Of a stretch of DNA of 64,000 nucleotides, positions 20,533 to 52,149 are shown in pieces; positions within the stretch are counted from its first letter, which is position 1; every line of letters begins with the position of its first letter. A program made the position numbers and the translations under genes. The notes below the pieces were generated by a model, which saw nothing but the letters and a program-made list of their open reading frames with translations, was not told the DNA's origin and ran no database searches. Source of the stretch: Ptychomitrium polyphyllum (lineage: Eukaryota); the NCBI GenBank assembly GCA_973851085.1, contig OZ316775.1:15872001-15936000 (forward strand). The letters run 5' to 3'.

Positions 20533-22625
20533 CGCTCTCCGCCTCCTCCTATCAAACCCACCTCCCCTTCTCGGCCCTAAGTCCGGTACGGCAACGCCAA
20601 CACCGGATTTTCTCACACCTAGAGTCAGAAACAAAGACACAAGGTGAAGAAGTCTCGAAGAGAGAAGCCAACATGTAAGCAGCCTCGCATGCGAGAATAA
20701 AAGCAACCTGATTGATGATCCACGGATTGATGATCCCTGAAAATGATAGCAGCGTTGACGATTCTCTCTCGCAGAACAAAGACTTTCGGACCTTTTTGCA
20801 TATGGGTTAGTAGCTCGTGGAATAGAAGCATGTACCTGGACACAGAAGAGCATCTCCCCAGCTCGCATATGCAGATTCGGCAAACGGTCGTCCCAGGAAA
20901 ACTCGAGCACTTCCTCCTCCTTGAAAGCTGTGGCAGCCTCGCAGCAGAGTCCCTTCCAAGGCCATGGCCTTGGCTTTGGGATTGGCTGCAGTGGAAACAG
21001 AGCTTAAGGTTTTAGTAGGTCAGAACTGTCGACTTGCTATTTCACACTGGCCACAAAGAGACTAATAGAAGCCATTAAGTGCTCCATTACAGTACTGCTG
21101 TACTGAGCCTTTGTGAAAAACAGGGGCCTAACTTGTCGAGAATGTATGTTCTTATGTTTTGTAAAAGCTGCAAATACCAGGTGAGAAGTGCTGGAGATGT
21201 GGTTGAGGGTGTCTTCATGCTGGACGAAGTACGGTAGGTGTGGTATACAGAAAGGGAGGAAGACGATTGAATGTGAGTACAGAGCTTGTGCATACCGTTG
21301 GATCATGTTTCTTGCTATTTCTGGTTGTGGGCTTCCTCAGCTCATTGTGTTGCAGTGACTAGGGACCCTGAGAATGAAGCTCCTGTGTGTGTTTTACATG
21401 ATGCATTGGAGCAGGTAAGGACGGATGTTATTTCAAAGCAATTGTAGTTGTTGAGAAGGAAGAACCTTTTGTTTGGTTTATATTAGGGAAGAGGTTTGAT
21501 ATTAAACTTGTGAGTGCTATTCCATCATCACGTAAGAGCACCAATAATGCCAAACTGGTGAGTTAGAGACCTCTCTGTTATTATCCAAAGTTAACCACAA
21601 GAACTATTGGATGCCCATGGTATATGTTTTCATGAGCACCACAGATGCAGCCAAAGATTCAGCAAGAGGTGAATATTAAAGTAGTAACAGCTTGTGCACC
21701 ATGTAAGGTGGAACACGAACTGGTGACTGTAAATCATGACTCTTCCTAACAACACCACAACAGAATGCAAAGGACCACACTTGATGAAAATTTTGTTTTG
21801 CTACAACATATTTCTATTGTTCTATATAGGTGGTCTATTTACACTAAAGTGGAAATTTGCCCTTGTTCTTAGCAATCTGCCAAAGCTGTACCAGAAATCC
21901 AATCGAGTTTGTATATTGATTTTTGACCTTTAACGAACACCATTATTCAAATTAAAAGGAAAGATACTTTAATCGTTTCTTTTATTTATCTCACAACAGG
22001 ATAGATCCCTCTACAATATTCTTCCAAGTTATTACCTCCATCGTATTCAAAAAAATCCATTTACGTCACTATGAGAATGAAGTGAAATTGTTGGTCACAG
22101 CATCCACCTGTAAGCTGCAAGTAACATTAGTATCCTGGATTCCAAACAAAAGAAAACTCCACGTATCAGAACAAGGTTCGCCAGACAAAAGGAAACTCTA
22201 CATGTTAGAATAAGGTTCACTTAATATACATGCACAGTACATAATGTAGTACTAAACATCCATGTGCCACAGACAGAGTCGTTTGTTAGCAACCCAATTG
22301 CCCATGTATTGAGGAAAGAGTGGCAACCTCCTAAAATTGTCAAATCAGAGAGACCGACGTTCTTCTTTAAACACCCGTAACCAGGGCTCACTTTGACAAG
22401 ATTCAAAACACCCACATAAGAGCTGAACTTTGTATAGGTCCTCATACGCAGTGCCAACTTATGAACTAACATGTGGTACCACAACAGGAGTATGGGTTGA
22501 GAAAATCGAAACATAGACCTTGTCAATTGTAGGGATTCTGTCACGTTCCGTTCCCCGTGAACGGAGTCTAGACATTTCATATCTGATTAGTTGATTGCAG
22601 TTAATCTAAATGATTGTTTCTAAAA

Positions 22626-22699
22626 TCCATCCCAAGGGAATTGAACCCTTCTAACCATATCATGAGAAAGTGGTTAGTGTTGCCTGTCAACATGGATGG
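22626..22699 (-). ncRNA. tRNA-like cloverleaf A (mascRNA-type four-way junction; not a canonical tRNA)
   Basis: Minus strand reads CCAUCCA | UGUUG-ACAGG-CAACA | CUAACCA-CUUUCUCAUGAUA-UGGUUAG | AAGGG-UUCAAUU-CCCUU | GGGAUGG | A. Confidence 0.8.
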
Positions 22700-24817
22700 T
22701 TTATAGAGTACTGCTACAAGATACTTGCACAATACATTGCTTCATTCTTACCATTTCCATTAAAAGTGTTGAATATATCAACCGTCTTCAGGGAAAATCT
22801 CAATGCATGTTTGGTCCACATCGAAAGACCAAATATCTCGATTTGTTTAAGCCAACAGGTCATAGAGATAGAACATGTAAAATAATCTCCATTCATAATG
22901 AACCATAGATCTGATCAAACAGATGACGCCTAAAGCCCAACGCCTCAAATTTGTAAACTACATAATAGTGAAGAGCACCATTCACTTACAACTATATATA
23001 ACAAGAAATAAACTTGGACAGGATTCTCTTTTACGAACACCCATCCCTGTCAAAAATGAACAAGAATAACTCTTAGAATGATCCAAGCTTTAGACTCTAC
23101 CACCCCAATTAGAGGATAATGCGAGACTTGTATAATGTTAACGCAGGCTACCTACTACATACTTAAAACAGAAGCAACGAGAAACACGATAAATAAGAGG
23201 TCAACGGATGACAATAACAAGATAAACAGGAAACTGTGAAAGAGAAAGCAACTCAATTTTTAAATACCTACTACTTCGAAAAACAAGCCAATTCTTTACA
23301 TGTAGTTCTGAGCTGATCAAAACTAGTGTCCTTTCGGATGGAACAACTAACAATATCCGAAGAACATTTTGGAATGACAATTGAATATTGAACTCAGTTA
23401 TCTTTCATTTCTGTTTACAAAAGTCCACCAATGTAACAATCGTTGGGGCATAACGAGGATACTCTTCCGTTCTGAAGACGCAACCGCAGAAGATTGCACA
23501 TGTCACTGCCTCTAAAACGAATCCACCACGGCGCTCAGTACACAGTGAAAACTCGTCCAAAAACTCCACTACTGAAGAACACCAATTGATACTCCAGTAC
23601 ACCCGCTCCAGGCTGCCAAATTAAACGTCTCCAGCTGATTTCAGTCGGCAGGTTCCTAACTCAGCATCCCCATGGACCTGAGCAGTCTAGCTTCAAATAC
23701 TACTATCTACCAACCAGAACAATTCCTAGAAACTATGTTCAAAGCATTATAAACCCCAACAAGATGAGCATACATTTCAACGCAACTGAACAGACCTCTC
23801 AACTACCTACAAAAATGTCAATACAAGGTTCGCTAAGCTCTGTTCTAATCGTGTTGTAACTAAAAGGAAATTTTCTAATATTTCTTATATATAAATATTA
23901 ATACAAAAATATATGGACATAGTGAGCCTCAACTGAGGTAGATGCAGAGAATATATAATCGAGTCCAATTGAATCAGACGTCTTCGTGAAAGTATATATA
24001 AACAATCGACGAGACAGCAGACGACTTCACAGTCCAAATTTGAATGTGCAGTGTCTCCACGATGTAAACTGATAGTGTGATGCTCAAGTGGATGAGAGGT
24101 GTTCAAAATGAAATGGTGTCTACACAATAAGAAAAATTCTAGGAAAATAGACGAAACTTTCATAAAAACATGCGAGTTCCTTTCCGGGATTGACGAGACT
24201 AATCGTGCACGAAGGACTTAATAGAAATCGCTTACAAATGAGGATAGATCTACTAACTACTTAGAGAAAAGGAAGGTGTTTGGATGAAGATTCAAAAAAA
24301 AAGGAGGGAGGACCAATGAAATGACCTACGTAACCTAGAAAATGCAGAAACTTACAAGCAATTGAAATCCAACCAACATTACAGTTGAGGTTGAGACACA
24401 ACTACCTTAAGTTGTTGACGACAAATCGGTGTGTGCTGGACTCGGTGGACGGTCATTGCTAGCAGTAGTAGTAGGCCCCTTGATATGAAGAAAGAATGCA
24501 TCCACCCACACAAAAACTCTTAACAAAGAGCGATGGGGGACATTACCATCAGATATTGTAGAAAGACAGGGAAATTGCCAGTCTCTCACCCGTCAGCATA
24601 CCATGGCTTTCATCCAACCAAAATAAAATGATGATACGTGGTCAGGGACTGTTTGAATCTCCTGCACCGTCTCAAGATTATTCGACGGAAATTCCTAACA
24701 GGGTAAAATTCGATAAGTAGCATGTGCCATTTGATAGTGTTGGTTGAGAATGCTGATGGTACAAGAGCTTCTATCTCCACCTTAGATCTCCACATCCACG
24801 CAACAACACTCCAAATG

Positions 24818-25118
24818 CTTCACCAACATGATCTGAGACCTCAAGTCGGTGTCCGTATGAGTTCTACAAGCAGTACCAAAAAATGACGTCGCATGATAGC
24901 CAGATTACCACACCCAAGAGAGGTTAGCGACACAAACACCACATACGACCAACACAACACAAGCGGGAGGATCAATCCTCCCTGCACCACGTAACATATT
25001 TTTTATTAAGAGTAAGACCCGCCCCGTAAGCGCACCCATAAGGGCAAGGTCTCGCGACACAACAATCAGCCTGGTAACTTTCAGTTCAACCATGGCTAGA
25101 CTGCGGCCGTCAACTCTT
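24818..25118 (-). ncRNA. Conserved structured RNA domain A, with core hairpin at 25014-25053 and a second hairpin at 24963-24985
   Basis: Aligns with 32382-32700. Core GAGACCUUGCCCUUAUGGGUGCGCUUACGGGGCGGGUCUU folds into a stem with compensatory changes relative to copy B. Confidence 0.75.
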
Positions 25119-25840
25119 TAAACCATCATCATCCTCAACGCAACATGTCGAATGCGTAAATAACCGCCGCTGCAACTATCCCGAATAGTGACTCCTTGTT
25201 GAACATCGTAAGCCGCTTAAATCTCTGCTTCAAACCTAACAATACAAGAACATAACCATTTGTTACATTATCTCCCCGACAATCGAGCTTATAGCCGCTG
25301 AACCAGAAAGGAACCCAAGCACAACTTTTCAAACTTAGATTATGAGAACGAAGGAGAAAAACCTCACCGAAAACTCCGGTTCAAGCGCCAAGAACCAAAA
25401 CCGCAAGTCAGTCGCCACAGACGAAACTCCATCATCCTAAAAAACAGCAACTAAGCTCCTCGAGCACCATGCGTCGTCATGACGGACAATCGAACTTCTG
25501 CTCTCTCAAGCGCGCCGTCCACCTTAACCACCATCTCCTCCGCGCTCCCTTCCTTTCCAAACCTCCCGCCAAGGTACCTCCGCAACAGAGAGTTCATCGT
25601 CACCCTGTAAACCACGTCCGGCTCCCTGCCACGAACGCACTCCGCAAAACCACGCCATACACACAACCACGCCTCCCGATTGCAGCACTAACTCCATCGA
25701 ACGCTCGTTCAAGCACACCATGCAGCGCATAATCGCACAACCTCAGCTTAAGTTAGCCAAACTAGTGCCGTTCTCTGCACGTCTTCCACTTGCCAGAATC
25801 TATGCCTCGGACGTCGACAGCTGTGATCGCAACGGCAGGC

Positions 25841-26084
25841 CTAGGGTTGTCGGAAGCAAAGAAGCCGTGCAGGGAACGACAAGGAAGTGGTCAAGCGGAG
25901 AGCTCAAGACGGAGGTGCTTCGGGAGAGACGACCCTATGGCCGCCTCTTCGCTTGACAGCCGTCGGTTTAAAGGCCACGGATTTGAGGTTCGACATAGAG
26001 ACCGTAGATGTGCGAACTTCTGGAACCTTCCACAGCCCACGCGTCTGAAGGCGGCTGCGTATCGACCGTAGATGGATGGACGGT
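25841..26084 (-). promoter_or_regulatory. Putative promoter/5' region of locus A
   Basis: Telo-box-like AACCCTAG (25841-25848) and ACCGTAGAT at 26001 and 26065; the same motif types occur upstream of locus B. Confidence 0.4.
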
Positions 26085-28768
26085 TTCAAACTAAAGTGAC
26101 GCATGGCAAGTAACGCCTATCACTCTAGTGTAAGGGAAGTGCGTCACTGCCAGCCAATCTGGGAGAAGATCTTTATGTGGGAGCCAGACTGCCAGCTCGA
26201 CAGAAAGTATACTTACTTTAAAGTAAAAGCGCATACATACCATCATTCAGCAGTTACAGGAACTCACCGTCACTTTGCAAAGTGAGAAACCAATGACAAG
26301 GAGAGCATGTCACATGTATGGATGAATGCAGCACATAAACCTTTTCAATCTTTAATGGAACAAGGTTTTGACCATATAATGATACTTTTGAAAGGAAGGT
26401 ACTTAAAAGGATAAATAAAAGTTAATAATTATATATTCACTAGTATTATGTACAGCATTTTTCATCTTAGTCAAAATAAAACACAATTAATTCATAAAAT
26501 GTTATTTTTCTCTTTAACTTTTAAGACAATTCTTTCTCAAACTTATAATTTGGTATAAGTTCAACAAATCTTTGAATGCATATTACATATATGAGATATT
26601 TCAATTGTTAGTTAATGATCTTATACATTATTATAAGACATAATATAGAAGAATATTATAATGAATCATCATATCAATACAAATGGTTTCATTGTATTTT
26701 TAATTCATTTATACTTCATTTTACGGACATAGATCATGCAATATAGTCCTTAGAATCTTCTAAAGTCCACTATATTCCAATGCTAAGGTTCCATAGATAT
26801 TCCAATATTTAAAAAACTTCTTAAGAGGGTTCCATCTCCTTAGAAAACTTCTTTGAAAGGTTTCATAGACTTCTAAAACATTCTTAGAATATAGTTTCTT
26901 AAAAGTATTTTGGAAGTATTTTAAAAGTCTATATTTGTAATTCCTATAATACTTTTTTTTTTCAATTCAAAAAATTCTAGAAATAAATAAAAAAATAAAA
27001 TTGTACAATATGAATGCTCACAAAAACAATTATTAAACATTTCAAACACAAATTTTTAAAATAATAATTTTAAATTTGAAAAACACAAGGAAAGTTTTCA
27101 AAAAAAATTTACATTTTTTCATTTTAAACCTTTATATTCTCCTTTTGTATATAAATTATAATATATTATAATATGTATTACTTATTTAATATTTGAAAAA
27201 ATTTCAGTGCCTATTAAAAATAAACAAAGTCTATTTTTCAAATGGATTAAAAGAATGGTTCTTTGAAGCAATTCCTTTTTGATATAAATTAACATTTTTG
27301 GATTTATGTTATTACAAACTATTATCTTGGACTTTTTAGTTGGAAGTGATAATTTAACAAGAAGAAAATGCTTGTTTAAATATTTTATTTCTATACTGAA
27401 AAATAAATCAATACATCTATATTATTATTTAAATACAAGTGTCGACATTCATAAACAACAAGGAAGATTTCTATTTATAATTTCACCTTATTTTTTTATT
27501 ATTTTCCTAAAATTCCAATTTAATTTCAAAAATTATCATTCTTAAAAATATTATCAATAAACCATTTATTCTCAATGGTTATGTACAAAAATCAACAAGC
27601 TTTAGTTGGAAATAATATAAGAACAATATAATTATATCAATGTTGATTTTTTGATTTTATAGGGAGTTAATCAAATCTAAAAATTCTAATGATATATATT
27701 TAATGATTTAAATCAAGAAAAGAAGCAAATAGTAATTTGTTTCATTTCTTAACTTTGGTTGTAATACCAATGTAACATTGCATGAATATAAAATCCAAAA
27801 AATACTATTTATATATTAAATATATTTGATTGTTAAATATATTCAAATAAATTTTAAAAATCTACTTTTAATAATTATAATAAGTTGTTTTTATTAATTC
27901 GCAACCAAATTGTATGAAATAAGCATTCAAAAATGAAGTTATGTACAAGAAGTTGATGTGTTAGCATTTATAATGATGAATTTATAAAAGGATGATTTTT
28001 AAATAATTTTTTGAATCCAATGTCATCATATTAAATAAAAATTTCTTTGTTTTTAACTTCATGTTATAATTAGAGACATCCATGGAGGACATATATTTAA
28101 TTACAATTCCATTAGTATAATGAGTAGAAAATCTAATTATGAAGTTGAAAAAAAACTCTTATATGGAAGTATGTTTTTTATATCTCATGTAAAATATATG
28201 TGTACATCTTTGTTATTAATTTTGTCTTTATTGTACAATAAAATTTCCTTAACTTTAATTGAAAAATTTCAAAGAATCAAATGTGAAGATAATCTGTGGA
28301 AGTCATAAATTACATTATTAAGAGATATATTTGAATAACCATACTATTATTTTTATTTATAATACAAACAAAAAATACTCTGCTTTCAGTTGAACTTTGA
28401 CTTGCATATGTTTACAATCAACCGTTGCCAAGCATAATTCCCATAGTATTATCTTTCTGATATTTAAGTGTTGTACAAATCAGAAACAAATATTGAGACT
28501 AGACAAGTACTCTAAGAAATCTAATGGACCTTTTCACTCTTGTAACACGTAATGAACAAGGGTTCTAAAGAATGTTATCTTGAAGCACAGTAAAGAACTT
28601 CAACCTCTTCCTACAGCCACAACATGAATTGTGGTAAAAAAACAACTATGCCCATGACCATATTGAAGGTGTGAAAGCTACACAAGGCATATACTAATGT
28701 GGGATAAATGTAACTTCAACTGACAAGATGTGATAAATATGGTTCACAACAACTGCAAAGAGCCTGGA

Positions 28769-29915
28769 TTATGATGTATAGCCACACATTCCATACTGAC
28801 ACACCTCTCCGGAAGGACAACTGTTGCTGCAAGACCCACAATGTTCATTATTGTTGAACATGTCAGTGCAAACCCCGTTGCAACATATGCTTCCATAGAA
28901 GCAAATGTGACCACACATCCCACAATTGAACATATCTGTTTTCATGTTAGTGCACACAGAGTTGCAGCAGTCCGGTCCTAAAAGGAAGTTGATGGGTTCC
29001 TGTTCACATATTTGCTTCTTCCATATGCATAAATACTGTGCAGAGAGTCGCCTTCCATTTGCAGGCTTCATGGGCTCCCCTGTTGAAAATCTGCCAGCTG
29101 GTACAGTATTCGAGTCAGCACTACACCAAGTAGACAGAGTTTAAGTTCATAGTTTGAGGAGCCTTCTAATGCATTAAAGTTATTTGTAAATTCACTCGTT
29201 TTCATAATACTCATCCACATGTTGCTGAAGTAAAGCAGATAAGTTCACAAAAAACTCTTTTGTGTTTATTAGTTTCCATTAGTTTGATTTAGTATTTTTG
29301 ATGCAGTGCAAGCACACTATCAGCATTTTTGATGCAGTGCAAGCACATTATCAGCATTTTTGATGGGCACACAAACGCTAATCAGTAAAACTTCTGATAG
29401 GGTACCCTGCTTATCAGAATTTGAGAAAGTTTAGACAAAATTTATATACTCCCTGGTGTATAGGTAACTTATATCATGTGAGCATGGATATTGACCGTAA
29501 CCCAAAGGCTAATAAAAATTACTGTCATCTGAGCAACTTTGCATCTACTTGTTAATTACAGAAGATGTTTGGAGAATGATATTCAACCCTTCAGGTTGGA
29601 AGTCCGGAATAGTCGCTTAGGAGTCAGGCTGCTCAGATTAGAGTTCATTTCTAGAGCTGGGGAGATGATACTGGTAGAGCTGGATTCGGCTACAACAGCA
29701 GTTGGGAAACTGGAGATGACCACAGTGAGCATCACAAACAATAAAGCCAATCGCAGCTGCTTCACCGAGTTCAATAAACCAGGGTCGCCAGGGAATTCAA
29801 CTGATGCTACTCCATCCCCAACGCATTTGGCAGCTGACCTGTAAGTGAATAGCCATTTCCGTGTGACTCGAAACCATTCAGAGTATTGACATGAGAAGTG
29901 GGACTGTTTAATCAT
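28769..29915 (-). CDS. STIG1-domain cysteine-rich secreted protein. Exons ~29915 (start uncertain)-29588 and 29097-28769
   Basis: C-terminal CCNSVCTNMKTDMFNCGMCGHICFYGSICCNGVC..NNEHCGSCSNSC..CQYGMCGY has STIG1 cysteine spacing. The hydrophobic segment LRLALLFVMLTVVISSFPTAVVA joins in frame through a phase-1 GT-AG intron (NLK-AGRFSTGEPMKP). The true start may be an internal Met, or lie in an upstream exon using the acceptor at 29838. Confidence 0.8.
29294..29365. repeat. 31-bp tandem repeat, ~2.3 copies, in the STIG1-gene intron
   Basis: atttttgatgcagtgcaagcaca(c/t)tatcagc twice, followed by atttttgatg. Confidence 0.9.
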
Positions 29916-30642
29916 GTCGCGACGACAAGACTAGCATCCGGTATATACATTGTTTTCTGTTCCTGAGCATTTGAACTATATCACTCCTCGTTGTGGATTC
30001 AAGCCTCAAAATACTTCCAATTCAGATTCTCCCGACGCTTTTGCTAATGCAACTCCGTCAACACCTGATTTTGTTCAAAATTGTAGAGCACACGATTAGC
30101 CTGCACAAGCAACTGAAAATATGGCATATTACTCCCTCTATAGATGATGTGATTATTAACCATGACAGACTCGCACATATTCTACTGATAAAACCAAGAG
30201 GGAAACTAATAGAGTCGACGAACCGTCCACAAGCTCGGACAGTGAGAGCAACCGATACAGATGATCCGACATAACCGACTTCTCTATAACCAACTCGTGA
30301 CCTTCGGCACTACCTCCATAACGGTGGCGGCCCAAGATGCAACCGCAGCGGTTACATTCGACGCAGAAAGCCATTAGTGTTAGTTTGATTGCAGAACGAT
30401 CGTTTAAAGGGGTACTCAAACCAAGGGGAACGATTTGTAAACAAGGGGAAGGGCAGTTTTTCATCGACGAAGGTCAGCTCTCCTCCAAAGCAGAACGTGA
30501 CAAAGCAATAGCAGCAGCGATCTACGGAGCACTAGCACATTCCAGACGGACCGTTACACAAGAGTTCATCGAAGTTTGTCAATTTTAATGAGCCTCACAT
30601 CTACAAAAACTAAAGCAATTGTTTAATGCGGGTATGGGCATT

Positions 30643-30717
30643 TACAATCCAAGGGTATCGAGCCCTTCCAACCACCTCCTACATGAAGTGGATGGTGTTG
30701 CCGATCAACAGGAGTGT
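30643..30717 (-). ncRNA. tRNA-like cloverleaf B (mascRNA-type four-way junction; not a canonical tRNA)
   Basis: Minus strand reads ACACUCC | UGUUG-AUCGG-CAACA | CCAUCCACUUC-AUGUAG-GAGGUGGUUGG | AAGGG-CUCGAUA-CCCUU | GGAUUGU | A. Confidence 0.8.
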
Positions 30718-32381
30718 TTAGAGATATTGCTTCACCGTCATGAATGCTACTGATGGTACGTCAGGTTAACGCAATAAGTTCACAATTCCGGAATTCATGC
30801 AGCATCCAATGCACCAAAATGACGATCTGCAATGTAGTCCAAACGAGTTAAAAAGCTTCTCATGTTTTCTGTACCTTTGATTTAGGGAAATGCAACGAAC
30901 AAAATATTTACATTTACGTATCAGAATACAATGGTTCCCTTGCTCACATGCATCACCTTATCCGCTCGAATGGATGACAGGTCCTTTCCATCAGCGGAAA
31001 GAAGTCAAATTTAAGAGCACTTAAAAATTTCCACCTCTATTTCACATGCTGTACAGCAAACGAAAGTTGAAAATCATCAGACTGTAAAAGCAACCAGAGT
31101 ATAAAACAGACATCACCAGTACAAACTAAAGAAAAACAGAGCCTGCAATAAATAATGATTCCAATAGGAGATTAGTAACGTGTAAAACAAGTAAAACAAT
31201 GAACTGCCTACATGCCTACATTTTTGAAATTTGTGGTACATTTCAATTTTCCTTACAGATATTGCAGACGATTTTCCAATAGCTAAAACTCCCAAGTTCA
31301 AAAGAAGGACATCCTTTACAAATAACCTCTTCACTACCTACAAGCCTAAAGATAAAATGTTTCTCTCTCCAATCAACTAAACTACAGAAATATGCTGCTT
31401 AAAATGTCTGCGTGTACACTAATTAATAAAGACCCTAGTGAAAGACTAATGTGTAGAAAAAACCACTACATCATTCATGGACTTTAGATCGTTTTCCACA
31501 GTACTCACCTCCAAGTGTATCATCTGCTTTACGCCATACCGAACGGTTCTACAATCTACTACATCCTATCCACATACTAACCGATGATTAATTCTGATGG
31601 TTAAGGTTCATCAATTTTAAACTGACAGATGCATTTCTACAAAATCGACATTTCTAAATACCCTGACGAGTAGGCAGGATATCAACATTACTCAACTGCT
31701 GAAAGCTTATACTTCTAGAAGGACAAAAACATCACCAGATTAATTATCTAATGATGATGTAAACACACATAATTGCTATCGATGTAACCAGATCATATCT
31801 TTCAAGAAAAATCATAAATGATCCAAAAAAAAAATAGCATGCTGAAAGGAAGGGAATAATGTATCACAAAGTAGAAAATATAGGAGTGAAAAGATTAAAA
31901 ATTAACAAAGAAAATACGAAGACAAGCACATGCTGCACACTACGCACAAATCAAAGATCAATGACTAGCATGTACCAACATCAGGATAAAATTGATTTTA
32001 TGAATCGCAAGGAGTGTGAATTGAGACACTACCTTAGAAATTGGTGTAGGTATGGCACATGTATGCTTGGGATAAATGCTTGAGAAGAGAGAAAACCGAA
32101 AAACACAATCAATGATGTAGTATAGAAACACCACTCTGTAAATGAATGTGTTAAGAAACTTTGGAATCAAAGATGATGTAGTGCGCAACTTTGCCCCAGC
32201 CTGGTCGCCATCTAATACGCGGTATCACAAACTGCTTCACAAGTGCTCCAAAGTCATGTAGCATAGTCTAATTTAACACTTATGTACCACGAGGAAAACG
32301 ATGTGCTGCTCCCAGTAATAAGAAGTCCAGATCCTCGGGTGCCACTTCCACACCTCCTAAAGCACAAACGTTGTCGTACGA

Positions 32382-32700
32382 CTTCACCCGATTATTGAGA
32401 CCTTAGCCCAGGTGACTATGTCTGCGGAGGCACCTCCGGAGAGCAGCCGGGAAGCAAATACAGAATAATGTTGCATGATAGTCAGGTCAACGCATCCGAG
32501 ACAGGTTACCAACACAAACCCTTGCACGACCGACACAACACCACCAAGAGGATTGATCATCCCCACACCACGAAACCTTTCTTTTTATTGAGAGTGAAAC
32601 CTGCCCCGTAAGCGCACCCATGAGGGCAAGGTTTCGCGACGCAATAATCAGCCTGGAAAACCACACTTTATCCATGGCTAGACTGCGGGCGTCAACTCTT
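32382..32700 (-). ncRNA. Conserved structured RNA domain B, with core hairpin at 32596-32635 and a second hairpin at 32548-32564
   Basis: Core GAAACCUUGCCCUCAUGGGUGCGCUUACGGGGCAGGUUUC; upstream block AAGAGUUGACGCCCGCAGUCUAGCCAUGG differs from copy A at one position. Confidence 0.75.
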
Positions 32701-33424
32701 GAAATCACAATCCTTGACGGAGACAAAATGTGCAAGGCGTAATATGTAGTTCTCTGGTAAAAAAAGTGTGCACTATCAACCCGACGACGGTGGAACACCG
32801 ACGATTACCATACAGTTGAACAAATCCTGATAGCACAAACACCGAACTATGAGTCTACCAAACAAAATACCTGTAATCTTAAAAACTATGTTCAGGTACA
32901 AATGTGACGTGGAATGACAGAAACAGAACTAAGAGAACTGAAACAATAGCCATAACAAAAGAAAAATCGAGAAGGAGTGCTGCCATACGCTTCAAATACT
33001 TGAAAGCACAAGAAATAACAATCTTACCATACAAACATAGTGCGAGGTCGCATATCAATCCCGTCCTTCAGCATTTTGGCGACTCCCCAAGTAACTGGAG
33101 CTCAACCGCCATCCCCCCGACTCCAAAAAACAAGCCGATCCCTCAACCATGTCATCTCATTGCACTGGAAACCGCCTCCACCTTCCTTCTCCCCAATGCA
33201 GTTCGGCCCGAACATCTCGGGATACAATTCACTGCCTCGATCACTCGAACGTTCCATAGAAAAGCGCAACACAAACACCTCGCCGCTTCACCTACCATCT
33301 CGCTCCACCGAAGAACCTCCGCCTCCACTTCAAAAACTGCTCACTATTCACGGTATACTCTTAATGGTACAATAACAACACCAAGTCTTTGTGCACAAAA
33401 CAAGAGAACGAGCGATGTTACGAG

Positions 33425-33713
33425 CTAGGGTTACAATGTTCGAAGCTAGGGTTATAGACTGAGAAAACTACGACAGTGTCGATCTGCCGCAACCTAGACG
33501 TCGGACGCGTTATATAAATTGCTGCAGTTAGAGAAAGATGGCCTATGTTAGTTGGATCTGGTCTCCACCGTCGATCTGTACCCACCGCATTTAGAATGCC
33601 ACTTGTAGCCGTCGATAGGGACTCGTTGCGCGCGGTTGAGGATCTCCGTAGACGAGATGTAGAACGTTCCAGGGCTCACTGTTAGAGAAGTCGGTTGTAC
33701 TACCGCCGTTGAT
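33425..33713 (-). promoter_or_regulatory. Putative Pol II promoter/5' region of locus B
   Basis: AACCCTAG twice (33425, 33446), TATA-like element at 33510-33518, and RCCGTYGAT at 33567, 33608 and 33705. Confidence 0.5.
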
Positions 33714-35843: not shown

Positions 35844-38800
35844 ATGACTTCGCAATCAGCTTCGATGACTTTCTGGTGCGTTGCTTGGGTTGGGTTTTTG
35901 ACGTGCTTTGTGCCGCGAGTGGTGGTTGGAGATCATGTGCGTCCTGTGTTGAGGTTCAACAGCGAGGGCACTTTTAAGATTCTTCAGGTGATTTATTTCT
36001 TAGCATCGACATTTTGATATATCTAAGTCGGCAGTCTTGTCCAGAAGAGTGATTGTGCCGTTGTGCACTTTTTATTTTTCATTCTTAACGTTAAATTTAG
36101 GAATGTGGCGCTAGCTCCTATTGAGATTTCAAATATGCATCATGATTGGAAGAAATCGTGTTAATCCGTCAAGTTATGGTCCAAAGTCGTAAAAACCCTA
36201 ATTCTATCCCAAAGGCCTTGGATGTTCAAGTTGAATCTTAATCATTATCCCAATCATAAAGTATTCACTTTCTGATTTATTTCACTTGGGTATACTCAGT
36301 CTGATCATACTCGTTAACTAGATAAATCTATCGAACAATTCTCTGCCCTAAGACTATTCTGCAACTTTCAGTATTAAACGCACTTGAGAGCATAATGGTC
36401 TTTGTTTGGCTTTGTCTATCTGATACTTATGCAATTACCTTGCATTGGATTATCTGATCAGTGCTGGTAATGCCATTGTTTCACTAAAACACCATGAGGA
36501 GTGAGGTTTTGGTTCCTGGTAGTGCCGTTGCGGTTCAGTTTCTCAGTACGCTTCTGGAATGTTGCAGTAGGACCACACGAACACGATATATTTGGTAATG
36601 GAACGATGTGTGGTTGCCTTTCTGTTTGTCTCTTTTACACGTCAGTTGAAGGTCGTTGACGATTTTTCTCTCTGTGAATGTGATGATGACATACGGGTTT
36701 AATATTTTAGCAAATTTCTGGCAGATGCTTTTGTAATGTTTGACGTCGTGATTATTACTTATCTTCGCAGGTTGCTGATATGCATTTTGCACAAGGTGCT
36801 CAGTCGCAGTGTTTTGATGTGTCTTCGTCATATCATTGCTCTGACTTGAATACTACTGTCTTCATTGAGCGGTTACTGGCTGCGGAGAGGCCTGATCTGG
36901 TTGTCTTTACTGGTATGCGATTGTACATTCTTGTTTTTGCACGGTGTTCTTTGAATCGAGTAGCTTGATAGCATGATGTTGATGATGTGTTTAGATTTAT
37001 TTCCGAATCTCCCAGCAAGTCGTTTTCCCAAACCTCAGCGTCTTGAAACTAGTGGACTACAATTGCTTGGTGAAGTGTATTCTCGAACAAGAATGATTCT
37101 GTTAATCAGGATGCGGTTGTGAGAAATACTAGCAGATTTGAGTAGTAGATTAGTTTCACAACTTTCCTTCGTAACTTGTTCCTTCAGTGTTTTGAGAGTT
37201 TACATCAAGAATTTACGTATATTCTTGCGCAGGGGACAATATCGACGGCGGTACTGCCACGGATGCCATCAAATCAATGGACCAAGCTTTTGCTCCAGTG
37301 ATAGCTGCTAAAATTCCTTGGGCTGGAATATTAGGAAACCATGATCAAGAATCAAATATACCACGAGCGAGGGTCATGGAGTATTTAACAAAGATGGATT
37401 ACTCTGTGTCTGAAGTTTTGAACCCTAGCATGGAGAGTCTTTTAGGGAAAAGCATTGACCACAGGGCCTCAATTGAGGTTCATGGGTACGGAAACTACTA
37501 TCTGCAGGTGTTCGGTGCTTTGGACTCAGATTCTGCCAACTCAAGCCTTCTCAATTTGTATTTTCTTGATTCTGGGGACTACTCAAAGTTTGATACTGTA
37601 GGTGGCTATGACTGGGTGCGAGCCAGCCAGTTACTATGGTTTGAAAATCTTGCGACAATGCTTAGGGTAAATATTTGTACCTGTCTTTCTATCTTGCGTG
37701 AGCAGGCTACTGGAGGTGATTGAGCACTATTGTAAATATGTTTTGCGATTTTCACATGAGAGTCTCTCTGGGTGGGATGCTGTCCCTTTGGACGCTCTTG
37801 AAAAATCTTATGCAATTTCATTGCTAGCCTATTCCTGTATCTGGTTTTTATGACTGTGACCGATAATTTTCAGGCGGAATCTGACTTGAGCTATTGAGCT
37901 GTTGCTAACACCCACTTGTAAATGTCTGCGGTGTTTCCCTTGCAGTCTGCGGAGGCCTCGGCAAATACTCAAATACCTCCACCTGTTACTCCGGCGTTGG
38001 CTTATTTCCACATCCCGATTCCTGAATACAGTGCAGTATTTATGAATCCTTCTACGGTGGTGGGTGAGAAACACGAAGTGATATGCTCCGCATCTGTGAA
38101 CTCTGGACTGTTCACGTCCCTTGTTGAAGCTGGGGATGTCAAAGCCACGTTTGTTGGACACGACCATGTCAACGACTACTGTGGCAGTCTACTTGGCATT
38201 AGTTTATGCTATGGAGGTGGCATTGGCTACCATACATATGGGTATGTGTTTATTGCTCATATAGTACCATTCAACATTGATAATCTTCTACATAGATCTT
38301 GAAATACTGTATATAATTGCTGCCAGTTACATGTTTTCTGCCACTCTTGTTGGGATTGGTCCTGGTGCTGTCTTTGTATGTTTGTTTTGGTTAAAATCAC
38401 TGTCTAAATGAATAATTATTTCATGTTTTTAATCGATCAAGATTCTGGTTCACGTTTGTGCTTCAGGAAAGCTGGATGGGCAAGAAGGGCACGGGTAGTG
38501 CAGGCCTCTCTTGGGAGGGGCGCGAAGGATGGTTCAAAAATCACAAGAGAGATCACAACATGGAAACTTCAAGATGATGAGGACTTGAGTAAAACAGATA
38601 TACAAATTCTGTACAATGGTTATGCGGGTGAATGGTTTTCTACGCCTTTCTTCAGCAGAAGCCTTTTATTCAGGAGAACTGGCAACAACTGGATTCCTAG
38701 TTTAACCCTCTTGTTGCTGCTAACAGGATTGGCTGGAGCATACTTCTTGGTTCATTTTTTGGTTCGGAAATTTCCAAGTCGTAAAAGGACAAATAACTAT

Positions 38801-38851
38801 TCCCCTGTTGAAAGGCCATCATCCGTTGAATCAAATGATGTGTACGACTAA
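35844..38851 (+). CDS. Purple acid phosphatase-like metallophosphoesterase (PAP14/28/29, Dcr2-like clade). Exons: 35844-35987, 36771-36912, 37233-37666, 37946-38241, 38467-38851
   Basis: Signal peptide; motifs LRFNSEGTFKILQVADMHF, PDLVVFTGDNI, LGNHDQES, LYFLDSGDYS, LAYFHIPIPEY, FVGHDHVNDYCG, YGKAGWARRARV; GT-AG introns in frame. Confidence 0.93.
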
Positions 38852-41735: not shown

Positions 41736-42290
41736 ATGGGGGTGATCATATCGAGGTTGTGGTTTTACATGTTTCCGGCAAAAGAGTACAAAATAGTTGT
41801 TGTGGGTTTAGACAACGCTGGAAAGACTACAACACTCTACAAGCTGCATTTGGGCGAGGTGGTCGTCACACAGCCCACAGTAGGCAGCAATGTGGAAGAG
41901 CTTGTATACAAGAATATACGTTTCGAAGTCTGGGATCTTGGCGGCCAAGAGCGACTGCGGACATCCTGGGCGACCTACTACCGAGGCACCCATGCGGTGG
42001 TGATGGTTGTTGACAGCACAGACCGGGCGAGGATCTCGATTATCAAAGACGAGCTCTTCAAGTTGCTGCAACACGAGGAGCTTCAAGGTGCCGTTGTGCT
42101 GGTCTTCGCAAACAAACAGGATTTGAAAGATGCGATGACTCCAGCGGAAATAAGTGATGCGCTGTCGCTGCACAGCATTAAGAATCACGACTGGCACATT
42201 CAGGCATGTTGCGCACTAACAGGGGAGGGGCTCTGGGACGGTTTGGGGTGGGTTGCGCAGCATGTGACTGGATCCAAGGTCACGCCCTAG
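41736..42290 (+). CDS. ARFC1: ADP-ribosylation factor-like GTPase (ARFC1/ARL5 type), 184 aa, uninterrupted CDS
   Basis: MG myristoylation start, [51 protein letters not shown]; splice acceptor tcag at ~41714 just before the ATG suggests a 5' UTR intron. Confidence 0.95.
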
Positions 42291-47875: not shown

Positions 47876-49763
47876 TTAAGGTGACGAGCTTGTGATGAGC
47901 TTCCAGGCAGTGCTGCAAACAACCGCTTGCTCCTTCCACGTGAGGTAAAGTCTGGCGTCAATTGTGTCAAGACCCCACCCCTTCTTGTATCTGGAAATAA
48001 AAATACATCCAATGATTGAACGAGTGTTGGAATTTGAACCATGGTATGATCGGTCGTGAAAAACATAATAGACCAGCTGCATTAAAGTTTCAATGATACA
48101 AAACATATATGTATCTTAAGTTATTAATTATGAATATCCATAAATTTGGTACCTTTTCAGAAGAGCTTGAACATCATCAACAACATCGAGGCTGAAAGGA
48201 GCAGGTTCGAAGCCAACTTGTCTTAGACGGGACTCCCAATGAACCCCCGTCTCTTGTCTTTCAATACTCTCCGAGGGATCACAGCTTAACATGTTCACCA
48301 GCTTCCGAGCGCAGTTCCTCTCCAGCATAAGCCGCTCATTGCTGGCTCTGGGAAAGCTTTCGTCCAGGGAGTCAAAGAAGAGCGAGTAGAACCTCAGGGC
48401 TTCACCTAAGCAGCCCACAAAGTCAGGCCACACCAAGTTCGCTTCGTCCTCCACCATGATCAAAATCTACAATAAAAGCAAAACAAACGAGTCATTACAT
48501 GCATTCAAAAGCTCGAAATTAATGCAAACAGTCATTAACTGAGATCCACTTAATTGCAAATACTAATTAATAACAACAAGTCTTTACAACGACCGACAGT
48601 TAAGATCGGACGCGAAGACAGATCTATTAGTTCAACGTAGGTTTAAATATAATAAATCAAGTATGTCTTTTACTAAACGTTTTATTACCTTGGGTTTAGC
48701 GTTTTGGAAAGTGCAGAGGATTCTGTCACGAGGGCAGCAAGGCTGCTCCTGAGATGTCACACTCTCAGAGATGTGATGCAGCGTTTGAACGCAGTTGATA
48801 GCAAGAGCTTCACCTTCACGGAAGGTCAGTGTAGCAAGGTCCAGGAGCTCCAATTGAGGCTGGTGCAGGACGGTGCCTTCGAACGGCACTCCCATGAGCC
48901 GGGCGAACCGTTCTAGCCTGTGCATGACTTGCTTCATGACCTTCAATGCCGCTTCTTCGTTTGAAATTACAATGGATGTGAGGCGGAGGTAAGGTGTCAC
49001 TTCAGTCCGAGTTGCCAATGCTTCCAGAAACGTTGGCCACTGGGTGCAGAATGTGCTACTGATGTCCACGATGTGAATCCTGGCCTCTCCTTCCAGCGCT
49101 TCTAGAAGCGCTCCGTTCCCAGCAACATGTCCAAATGTTGTCCAGGGACTCGCATCCTGGCCGTCAGAAATTTTATAAAAAAAATTCAGTATTTTCTGGT
49201 AGTGCAGCAATTGTAACATTAACAGGAGAAATCTACATTTTTATTTTTGATTTTGGTACCTGAAACTCAAGGATCATATCGCGCATGGATTCGAAACAAT
49301 ACGTCTTCTCCGCTGCCGCGGTGAGACTGCGGTGGCAACGGCTACCGGTGCCCGAGATCTTGCAGAAAAGAGCTTGGACGAAGTATGAGACCAGTCTCTG
49401 GCCGGAGTCACCGTAAGGGGAGGCACTCTCATTCAGGATCCACATGATACTTTGCACTCGCGGAGCGTCTTTTTCAGCAATGGCTCGTGCACAGTCCAGA
49501 AGCAACGCCTTCGCCCACGAATACTGGGTCAAGATGACGTTTTGGGAACTGCTACCTGGATAGTTGTAGGGTTGATCATCTTGGTGTACCGCAGCAGAAA
49601 AGGTGGCGGCTTTGAAGTTGCTGGAGTCCCAGTCCAGGGAGTGGCTTGATTGGCGTGGTGGCAGCCTGGATTCGGAATCGGTGTTACCACTTGACGGGTC
49701 ATGATGGGGTGCGAAGAAGCTGAACTGGTATCTGGGGTACCGGCACTCTTCGGGTGGTGCCAT
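47876..49763 (-). CDS. SHR: GRAS transcription factor, SHORT-ROOT-like. Exons: 49763-49260, 49156-48689, 48466-48153, 47990-47876
   Basis: LNESASPYGDSGQRLVSYFVQALF, LEFQDASPWTTFGHVAGNGA, IHIVDISSTFCTQWPTFLEALATR, ERFARLMGVPF, SLDESFPRASNERLMLER and C-terminal WKEQAVVCSTAWK; three in-frame GT-AG introns. Exact orthology within the SHR clade is not established. Confidence 0.9.
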
Positions 49764-52149
49764 GATGTTAGTTATGGGCTATTACTTTTGTTCTAAGGTC
49801 AATACTTTCTACAGAGTCGCTGCATATCCTTCTTCTAGTCGATCATGAACTGTAACCCACAAGACCTCGGCAGCTTATGGTTTTATAGTTGTGCAACCTC
49901 TGTCTGTAAGGTACCTTTAACTATTTGTTGTGGTCTCAACCAAAGTCCATCAAGCAAGCCGCGAGAAGTTTCTAGCATTTAATTTGCAAGGGTTTAATCT
50001 ACCTGCATGATGTCTTCTACAAACGGAACTTCACGGAGTAGTACTCGATCACCACCAAGATGATATTATTATTCTCTTTGTCACTGCCGAATAACCGCTG
50101 GCAAGACAAACTTGATACTACATGAGTACCCGCTACTGGTGCAGGCAACCTTAGAGTAGCTAATCATCAGAACATAACACAATATCGTCCAAAACATCCG
50201 CACGGCTGTGATTGCATTCTCAAGAGAAAACCTCTCTGAGCAGATTAACAATATCCATCCCCAGTAGAGCTTCAACCTAACCGCCCTTAACTATGACGAC
50301 CAGTGCAGAAAAGAAAAGAAACTGCAAGATTCCATTTTGAAGTGTTGGACAGCATCAGCCACCAACTAACTTGTCAATAATCTGAGAGATCGTGTCGAGG
50401 GATGCTGGTCTTTAGACTTTGAAGAACTTGGTCCACCCGAGCTCTCCCCAACGAGAAATCTGCACAACTGTACACACGTGGTAGCAATATACAGGAGAAT
50501 GAATTGCCAAATTAATTCTGGAGCACATGATGAGTTAATTCGGCCTTCATATTCCAGCAGGCTGTCATATATGACTTGCAACTGCTTCAAAGATTCTTCA
50601 AGAGCGGTACTACTACCATACGGGGCATTCATGGTTCAATCAATTGATAAGCTGGAGCATTGTATTACATTGAGCTGTATCAAAGCAGGTACTCATGGCC
50701 TTCAGCTAATTGAGGTTCTCCTGCTTTGGAGCGGAGTGGTTGTCTGTATTGAGCATCTTACTTCATTGAAGAACTTTCTATTCAAGATGCCGGGGGCTTA
50801 ATAAGTTTGCTTGAATAGATTCCACGGGCTCGCAACAAATACGTTTGACCGTGACTAGTATTCCCGCACTGTCCACATGGAACTCGTTGTTCTACTTCAA
50901 TGCAATTCTTGACTGATGACATTACACTCTCAGACTCTTCTACATTCAGGCTGCAGCTTCAGCTGCGTTGGCGATTCACCTGTTTCAAGTGTGTAGGTTC
51001 ATGACGCCATTGCCCTGATCCATAGTCCTCAGGACCATTTCTGTATGAGATCCTCTCCCTGGAACATTTTCTACCAGGTTCACATGAGATGCAGCCTGCT
51101 TTTCATAAATGACTTAAACAAGTAATAGAAAGAGTAAAGAATCCATATTCATGACAATGTTTGCAGAACAATGGAAATTGTATGGGGCCTTTACCGAAGG
51201 AATTATTTCTCTGAAACAAGTGGCAAGAATTTATTTATTACCACTGCAAGGGTAGGCAAAATACTACAGCTAAGCTGCCTGAGGTGGGCAACTGGTCAAA
51301 AGGATTTTTGTCAATGTGGAATTAACCATGAAGCTAAGAACCGTCTTTTGAATTTAAACAAGCTTTGTTGAAGAGGCCTTAAGTTCCAGCATGCGTCTTC
51401 CACCTGAACGCCAAGCACAGGACTCATCCAACTGTTGTCAAACTTCTTGTAGATTTGCCGCAGCTGGGCAGACCGTCTCTTCACTTCAAGGAGCGTTGGT
51501 TCAAGAATCTAAGAGCTACTGCAGACTGCAAGTGAAAATTGTTTATATTAATTAATTTGCAGATTAGCAATGCAGCTTATCCGATTACGTGGGAGCATTC
51601 TACCAGAATGAAAGGATAATTGATCAGGCAATTGCCTTATGAAATCTAGACTAGATGGAGATGGAGGGCTTTGAATGTACTTGTAAGACATGTAAGACAT
51701 GTTGAAAATGAAACCAGGAAAGTGTTTGAGATTCCCGAAGTTATCATGAGAAATGACTGTAAACCTCACATCAGGGTGACACATGATCAGATTGATATTA
51801 TTTTGACATCACACTAACCCTGCCCAAGTTTACTGATGCATGTGGCAGCAATCTTGCCTCATGATTGCCAAAGTATTATACAGGGCAATCTAATCACAAT
51901 TTAAGTCTCGCATGCATAATTACTAGCCAGCAATGAGTTTTTGATGGAACCCATATATTACAAGTTACTCTTTCAGTTGCCAGCATCAAAGATTGATGTA
52001 CACTAGGCAACTTGGCAACAGCCCACAGCCATGATTGAGATCACTTTATAGGCAAAGCACAGACTTCAAAATGGAACATCCAACTAGGCTCCATCAACCA
52101 CATCAGGAACTTGAGGGCATGTCAGTTTGATGTCAAAATGACATCAAAT

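Follow-up and report, generated by a model that had tools for sequence, protein, structure and literature searches.

A 74-nt segment on the minus strand of the analysed moss nuclear DNA (the window, meaning the whole 64-kb stretch) folds like a tRNA from which every linker between the helices has been removed. Whether this cloverleaf is a tRNA, the relic of one or a tRNA mimic with a role in a longer RNA is the question addressed here.

22699 to 22626, minus strand: tRNA-like element A, 74 nt, a linker-less cloverleaf

Element A starts with a C and is made up of an acceptor stem (nt 1-7 with 67-73) in which only the A7.G67 pair at the junction is open, a D arm (nt 8-22) with 5 bp and the loop ACAGG, a third arm (nt 23-49) with 7 bp and a 13-nt loop, and a T arm (nt 50-66) with 5 bp and the loop UUCAAUU. 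A discriminator A follows, and zero bases lie between the helices. The initial annotation of this DNA had drawn the same geometry by inspection, including the A.G mismatch in the 7-bp acceptor and the D, T and third arms joined without linkers, and the minimum free energy structure turned out to be this cloverleaf itself (-26.1 kcal/mol, z -3.07; 2 of 200 shuffled sequences were equally stable). Helix probabilities were 0.85-0.99 for the element in isolation and 0.49-0.98 when 200-nt flanks were included. The plus strand also folds (-23.0 and -22.1), with loops in the order 8-nt/5-nt and without a T-loop or GG motif, and this fold was rejected.

A conventional tRNA identity is not borne out. 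ARAGORN predicted zero tRNA genes in the window, and the Rfam tRNA and mascRNA families gave no match at E<=10 in the 11.8 kb between 21800 and 33600. Nine Rfam matches at E<=1 were obtained in the window and three at E<=10 in 21800-33600, none of which reached its gathering score. The cloverleaf copies described here lack the canonical 5-bp anticodon stem, 7-nt loop and linkers, and carry a third arm of 21-28 nt instead. A tRNA-Sec, tRNA-Pyl or tmRNA identity was rejected on the grounds that an anticodon loop is absent, the third arm is variable and ARAGORN was negative.

A descriptor of the layout, written only after element A had been seen, matched exactly two sites in the 64-kb window, namely element A and 30717-30644. 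In 1475 Markov-simulated windows the same descriptor gave 6 matches, and 47 when the rule for GG in the D loop was dropped. The second site is a paralogue.

30717 to 30643, minus strand: tRNA-like element B, paralogue of element A, 75 nt

Element B lies ~8 kb from element A on the same (minus) strand. It has the same D and T stems, a D loop AUCGG and a T loop CUCGAUA, the first position of which is a C. Its acceptor contains a single C.U mismatch and its third arm a single U.U mismatch. Its fold has an energy of -26.3 and was equalled by 7 of 200 shuffles. The helix probabilities of 0.52-0.85 in isolation fell to 0.0-0.46 with 200-nt flanks, which counts against element B folding unaided within a long RNA.

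To see what the two loci share, we compared 5.0 kb around locus A with 4.7 kb around locus B by blastn. Only two segments aligned: the cloverleaf with a short leader (75% identity over 88 nt) and a block further upstream (77% over 283 nt), whose alignment nhmmer extends weakly in the upstream direction.

22700 to 22718, minus strand: leader immediately preceding element A, with weak similarity to 30734-30718 within the 88-nt alignment
24882 to 25159, minus strand: block A, conserved, structured and non-coding, ending 2183 nt before element A
32464 to 32742, minus strand: block B, conserved, structured and non-coding, ending 1747 nt before element B and 77% identical to block A

The paralogue and the shared upstream block are additions to what had been noted before at this locus. 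A short motif of the type AGCAAU occurs 5' of both elements (22742-22700 and 30734-30718, minus strand), twice in the case of A.

Within the cloverleaf, conservation is uneven. Both strands of the D stem, both strands of the T stem, the GG of the D loop and the discriminator are identical between A and B, while the two acceptor strands are identical at only 3 of 7 and 4 of 7 positions. Of the 24 pairs, 18 are unchanged, three have changed on both sides and are still paired, and three are open in one copy. When the two sequences were compared in slid registers, no double changes were found and pairing was 33-50%, versus 94% in the true register. Ten random stem substitutions left at least 22 pairs intact in 131 of 200,000 trials. 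A shuffle control for covariation gave 71 of 500, which is not significant with two full sequences. By eye, the acceptor of element B can also be read with a register shift of one pair, which leaves two double changes and still holds the length of seven positions.

Further copies were sought in DNA contigs from two runs (X1 and X2) of one sample, possibly the source of the window itself. The core of the block is present in at least four copies in these contigs, comprising A, B and two contigs that differ at 2 and 4 of 46-47 nt. A contig at single-copy depth (6452 nt in X1, 4162 nt in X2) carries the core of the block and a cloverleaf's 5' part in the same order, the latter as a 26-nt match to 22702-22677. 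In its next 30 letters we recognized by eye a third arm of eight pairs, two of them G.U, closed by a 5-nt loop and followed without any spacer by AAGGG and UUCAA; this third copy is seen in part only. Within the window, a covariance model built from A and B found no third copy, the next best match scoring 9.6 bits when the antisense strands of A and B are set aside; true tRNAs scored 7-25 bits with this model. Across this small gene family, conservation of the cloverleaf extends to two complete copies and a third seen in part.

The length of the third arm differs between the copies (27 nt in A, 28 nt in B and 21 nt in the third copy), so that there is no anticodon, and no decoding role is expected. 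The loops of all three third arms start with CACUU and contain U-N-A-U-G, which may be a tRNA remnant or a protein site. With D and T stems, a D-loop GG and a junction free of linkers all retained, and a third arm that is free to vary, the element behaves as a tRNA mimic rather than a decoder. Judged by this pattern of conservation, the mimic is real and under selection in a family of non-coding moss genes.

We next consider the upstream block. Both blocks fold into long hairpins, the core hairpin lying at ~25053-25014 in block A, where an A-rich run follows, and at ~32635-32596 in block B. Each block also contains an ATG frame of 61-62 codons (25093-24911 and 32675-32490, minus strand) with an invariant nine-residue core. 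These spurious block peptides were used as bait against the predicted ORFs of Logan, JGI and ENA assemblies. A first profile search returned the core in six of eight matches, the other two being P0093, an unrelated repeat protein, and P0092, which was left out too. In a second profile search the core was present in 14 of the 16 predicted ORFs listed, six of these 14 having already been part of the query, and two weak matches (E 1.3 and 8.8) were dropped. This recurrence of the core in other assemblies indicates that the block is common to other organisms. That gene callers translate the block frames in many assemblies makes these frames a practical bait for the RNA family.

Other searches with parts of the loci were negative. 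A homologue search with the block frame as a single peptide gave no candidate, none of 19 matches was confirmed in a peptide-pattern scan of viral contigs, and blastn against plasmids and phages returned nothing meaningful. Scans with block patterns gave 0 and 1 loci in viral contigs and 25 loci in prokaryote genomes; in these 26 loci similarity does not go beyond the 31-38 nt of the pattern itself, and we dismissed them as chance matches. A metagenome scan with the D-arm pattern gave 112 loci, of which none had a T arm and none aligned to locus A or B. The final 22 letters of element A recur without a difference in two viral contigs (L151 and L154), neither of which has a cloverleaf, and we take this to be chance.

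The sequence around the elements was scanned for promoter motifs and, with a rough weight matrix, for splice sites.

25841 to 26073, minus strand: predicted Pol II promoter of locus A, with a TATA-like motif at 25972 and a telo-box-like motif at 25848
33425 to 33616, minus strand: predicted Pol II promoter of locus B, with TATATAA at 33516 and telo-box-like motifs at 33453 and 33432
22746 to 22754, minus strand: predicted 5' splice site ATG|GTAAGA
22108 to 22160, minus strand: predicted 3' splice sites, with AG ending at 22135 and 22108

At both loci the motif scan places motifs resembling a TATA box and a telo-box upstream of the block and on the same strand. The donor that had been noted ~50 nt upstream of element A is indeed there, with its GT at 22751, 52 nt upstream of the element. 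Its score of 4.2 makes it the sole site of at least 4.0 in 21700-26000, 18 such sites being found by the rough matrix on the whole minus strand. Together with the acceptors at 22135 and 22108 this donor plausibly delimits a predicted intron of 617-644 nt that would hold element A. The earlier proposal of an intronic position is credible for copy A, the donor being the best-scoring one of the locus. Copy B has no equally strong donor nearby, its best site within 400 nt upstream scoring 2.4, which falls inside the range of 1.0 to 4.9 given by eight presumed donors of a neighbouring gene. At locus A, two tandem copies of a 39-nt sequence (81% identity; window positions 22142-22218) directly precede the predicted 3' splice sites.

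The layout of the element invites comparison with mascRNA. In mascRNA the AS comprises positions 1-7/51-57 and the DSL positions 8-18, a GG is found at 14-15 and eight linkers are absent (PMC11693755). The initial annotation had equated the linker-less junction and the short D loop ending in GG with this layout, in agreement with the published structure. Likewise, the moss element and mascRNA/menRNA have a linker-less four-way junction, a 7-bp acceptor, a 17-nt T arm, a short GG-ending D loop and no anticodon in common, and a long non-coding host as well if the moss host RNA is as we suppose. In mascRNA, two G residues of the D loop and the T arm form the elbow from which RNase P and RNase Z measure (PMC11693755). 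Two D-loop G residues facing a C and a purine in the T loop are also found in the moss copies, since GG and UC(A/G)A are kept in both A and B, from which we infer a three-dimensional elbow contact between the D-loop GG and the T-loop C and purine. The parts of this elbow had been put forward as recognition features, and the D-loop GG and the T arm are exactly what the paralogues retain.

The resemblance to mascRNA/menRNA holds for the layout but not for the MALAT1-type module upstream: a U-rich/A-rich triple-helix module is absent within 200 nt upstream of either element, where there are only T4-T5 runs and no A-rich tract. The moss element is also longer (74-75 nt versus about 58 nt), its D arm measures 15 nt (5 bp) versus 10-11 nt, and it has neither an Rfam match to mascRNA/menRNA nor any sign of common descent with them. 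Size, sequence and triple helix all speak against membership of that class.

A closer precedent than mascRNA, in our analysis, is provided by the plant GUT15/CR20 long non-coding RNAs with their tRNA-like element (PMC6152437). These were among the earliest plant lncRNAs described, and functional data on them are still scarce (PMC10226578). In the Arabidopsis study, AtGUT15 and AtCR20-1 have a first structured segment in common that is followed by a second, tRNA-like region, and members of the family are described solely from monocots and dicots (PMC6152437). The tRNA-like element of AtGUT15 (At2g18440) is, according to the same study, Pol II-derived, excised and CCA-tagged; it sits in the 674-bp last intron, the splicing of which it inhibits, and it inhibits splicing in a foreign intron too (PMC6152437). 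The AtCR20-1 element is reported there as absent from tRNA-seq (PMC6152437), so that such folds are not always excised. GUT15 RNA is further reported as a target of HEN2 and the exosome (PMC4140647).

The moss loci resemble the Arabidopsis GUT15/CR20-1 loci in being intergenic non-coding loci of a small paralogous family, in combining a conserved structured segment with a second conserved region downstream, a tRNA-like element in which a canonical anticodon arm is missing, and in having this element in an intron in one member and apparently not in another, which for the moss is a prediction (PMC6152437). The predicted moss intron of 617-644 nt is similar in size to the 674 nt of Arabidopsis GUT15. 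The element itself is of another type: the Arabidopsis one is described as having canonical D and T loop sizes, a 3-nt acceptor-D linker and near-canonical A and B boxes (PMC6152437), whereas the moss one lacks linkers and has a D stem of 5 bp with a loop of 5 nt. One of the published primers for the Arabidopsis element finds no match in the window even when 3 mismatches are allowed. GUT15/CR20 RNAs are capped, polyadenylated, alternatively spliced and unstable Pol II transcripts, and of these traits the moss loci offer predicted promoter and splice motifs. The GUT15/CR20 segment has no conserved ORF and in angiosperms contains a like hairpin followed by an A-rich run, and the moss block, which is structured and non-coding, is likely its counterpart. 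On the basis of this layout and hairpin, the moss loci probably belong to the GUT15/CR20 family. A literature search, which covers few subscription journals, listed no moss GUT15/CR20 member and no linker-less plant element among its matches. By our comparison, the moss element is mascRNA-like in shape and GUT15-element-like in setting.

The nuclear RNase P of plants is the protein PRORP. Our preferred reading, to which we assign a probability of roughly 0.6, is that Pol II would transcribe the loci into a GUT15/CR20-type long non-coding RNA that carries the block and then, ~2 kb downstream, the tRNA-shaped element. The D-loop GG would contact the T-loop C and purine to give a tRNA-like elbow, PRORP would cut before nt 1 and tRNase Z after the discriminator, and CCA would be added to the excised element. 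The host RNA would then be either spliced or cut, and cutting would end or destabilize it in competition with splicing. PRORP1 footprints G18, G19, C56 and position 57 (PMC4919922); together with the mascRNA elbow this indicates that the conserved parts of the element are those read by tRNA-end enzymes. Plant mitochondrial t-elements likewise place tRNA-like processing marks in a longer precursor and are cut there by PRORP (PMC4919922); the moss cut is a prediction. The t-elements concern organellar mRNA ends, while the moss element belongs to a nuclear, non-coding gene family. Features that count against the preferred reading are the C at nt 1 and the junction mismatch in element A, and the C at the first T-loop position in element B.

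These same features, which are non-ideal for cleavage, speak for an alternative in which a genuine, selected fold acts without being cut, either by binding an elbow-binding protein within the long RNA, as a splicing brake or as a signal for localization or mobility. The conservation data fit this equally, and precedents are found in the AtGUT15 element inhibiting splicing even in a foreign intron and in the AtCR20-1 element not being seen as a small RNA (PMC6152437). Against it, both copies hold exactly seven acceptor positions and five T pairs despite a mismatch that has moved, as expected of the ruler used by RNase P and RNase Z, and the GUT15 element is described as excised and CCA-tagged (PMC6152437), which leads us to regard a role without cleavage as unlikely. 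The B-box-like T arm of element A and the four T directly 3' of it could be accounted for by an independent Pol III small-RNA gene, or a SINE-like unit, lying within the locus. Judged by eye against the A-box consensus, the reshaped D arm gives no A box; in element B the B box is degenerate and the first T5 run lies ~35 nt downstream; and the element travels with the upstream block and not as a dispersed repeat. Moreover, even the more canonical AtGUT15 element is not transcribed by Pol III (PMC6152437), and a Pol III unit appears improbable.

A decaying tRNA pseudogene without a present role, perhaps derived from plastid tRNA-Ile(CAU), would explain the sole Rfam match at the element, which is on the opposite strand, to RF04354 ('Plastid-ycf2 5UTR'; 28.4 bits, gathering 65.7, E 0.018). 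Read backwards, the RF04354 consensus is a tRNA with a CAU anticodon, which we take to be plastid trnI-CAU, and copy A agrees with it in acceptor letters, in the T arm and in a loop motif that includes CAU. The match hints at descent from a CAU tRNA, but copy A has neither the anticodon arm geometry nor the linkers of that tRNA, the score is far under gathering and copy B has no RF04354 match. The same acceptor/T signature in viral contigs marked four tRNAs among 16 loci (two CAU, one GAA and one UAC) and is thus not specific. Because the loss of all linkers in three copies and the invariant D and T stems amid unalignable flanks are unlike decay, we consider the pseudogene very improbable; descent of the element from a tRNA, which would not imply lack of function, is possible though doubtful. 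The frames in the block, with their invariant core recurring in other assemblies, could finally be read as selection on a short peptide with the cloverleaf as a passenger. Over the first 32 codons, A and B differ by two synonymous versus 13 non-synonymous changes and third positions change least, which is a non-coding pattern of change. Frames also shift on both sides of the core among the matched ORFs, and a peptide leaves unexplained the retention of the cloverleaf, and of nothing else, at a distance of 2 kb, making this explanation hardly credible.

If the loci are moss GUT15/CR20 members, the block and the tRNA-like element predate the split between mosses and flowering plants, and tRNA mimicry would be core to the family and not an Arabidopsis oddity. 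The linker-less mascRNA shape in a lineage with a protein as nuclear RNase P would be convergence on one minimal design. Gene targeting works in Physcomitrium. The knockout of its nuclear PRORP (PpPPR63) is viable (PMC4919922, citing Sugita 2014), and the question posed by the moss loci is directly testable. According to the abstract of a 2025 study, no lncRNAs other than MALAT1 and NEAT1 are matured by the tRNA machinery (PMC12941219). More tentatively than the preferred reading, land plants might possess an old, independently evolved counterpart of MALAT1/NEAT1 maturation, in which a moss-deep GUT15/CR20-type family would carry a mascRNA-converged mimic, PRORP would set the non-polyadenylated 3' end of a block-carrying nuclear RNA, and a 77-nt, CCA-ended small RNA would be released.

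Some other features of the region may be recorded. A motif resembling the plant snRNA upstream element is present at 26176-26183 (minus strand), ~240 nt before the predicted start of locus A, and none was found at locus B. Just upstream of the locus A promoter lies a short MITE-like high-copy repeat (26720-26890), with a depth hundreds of times that of single-copy sequence and many variant contigs. Loci A and B are arranged in tandem upstream of a gene with an Aldolase_II match below cutoff, which we take to be a methylthioribulose-phosphate dehydratase/enolase-phosphatase-like gene, and a gene for a small cysteine-rich protein of the STIG1 family (28772-29140, minus strand) is situated between the two non-coding loci. 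The other neighbours are ordinary and include a metallophosphoesterase (37196-38851, plus strand), an intronless ARL5 GTPase (41736-42287, plus strand), which is 96% identical to that of Physcomitrium patens versus 88% to that of Selaginella and so marks the host as a moss, and a GRAS factor (48635-49778, minus strand). Finally, a MITE-like 47-nt terminal inverted repeat encloses 262 nt at window positions 51792-52147.
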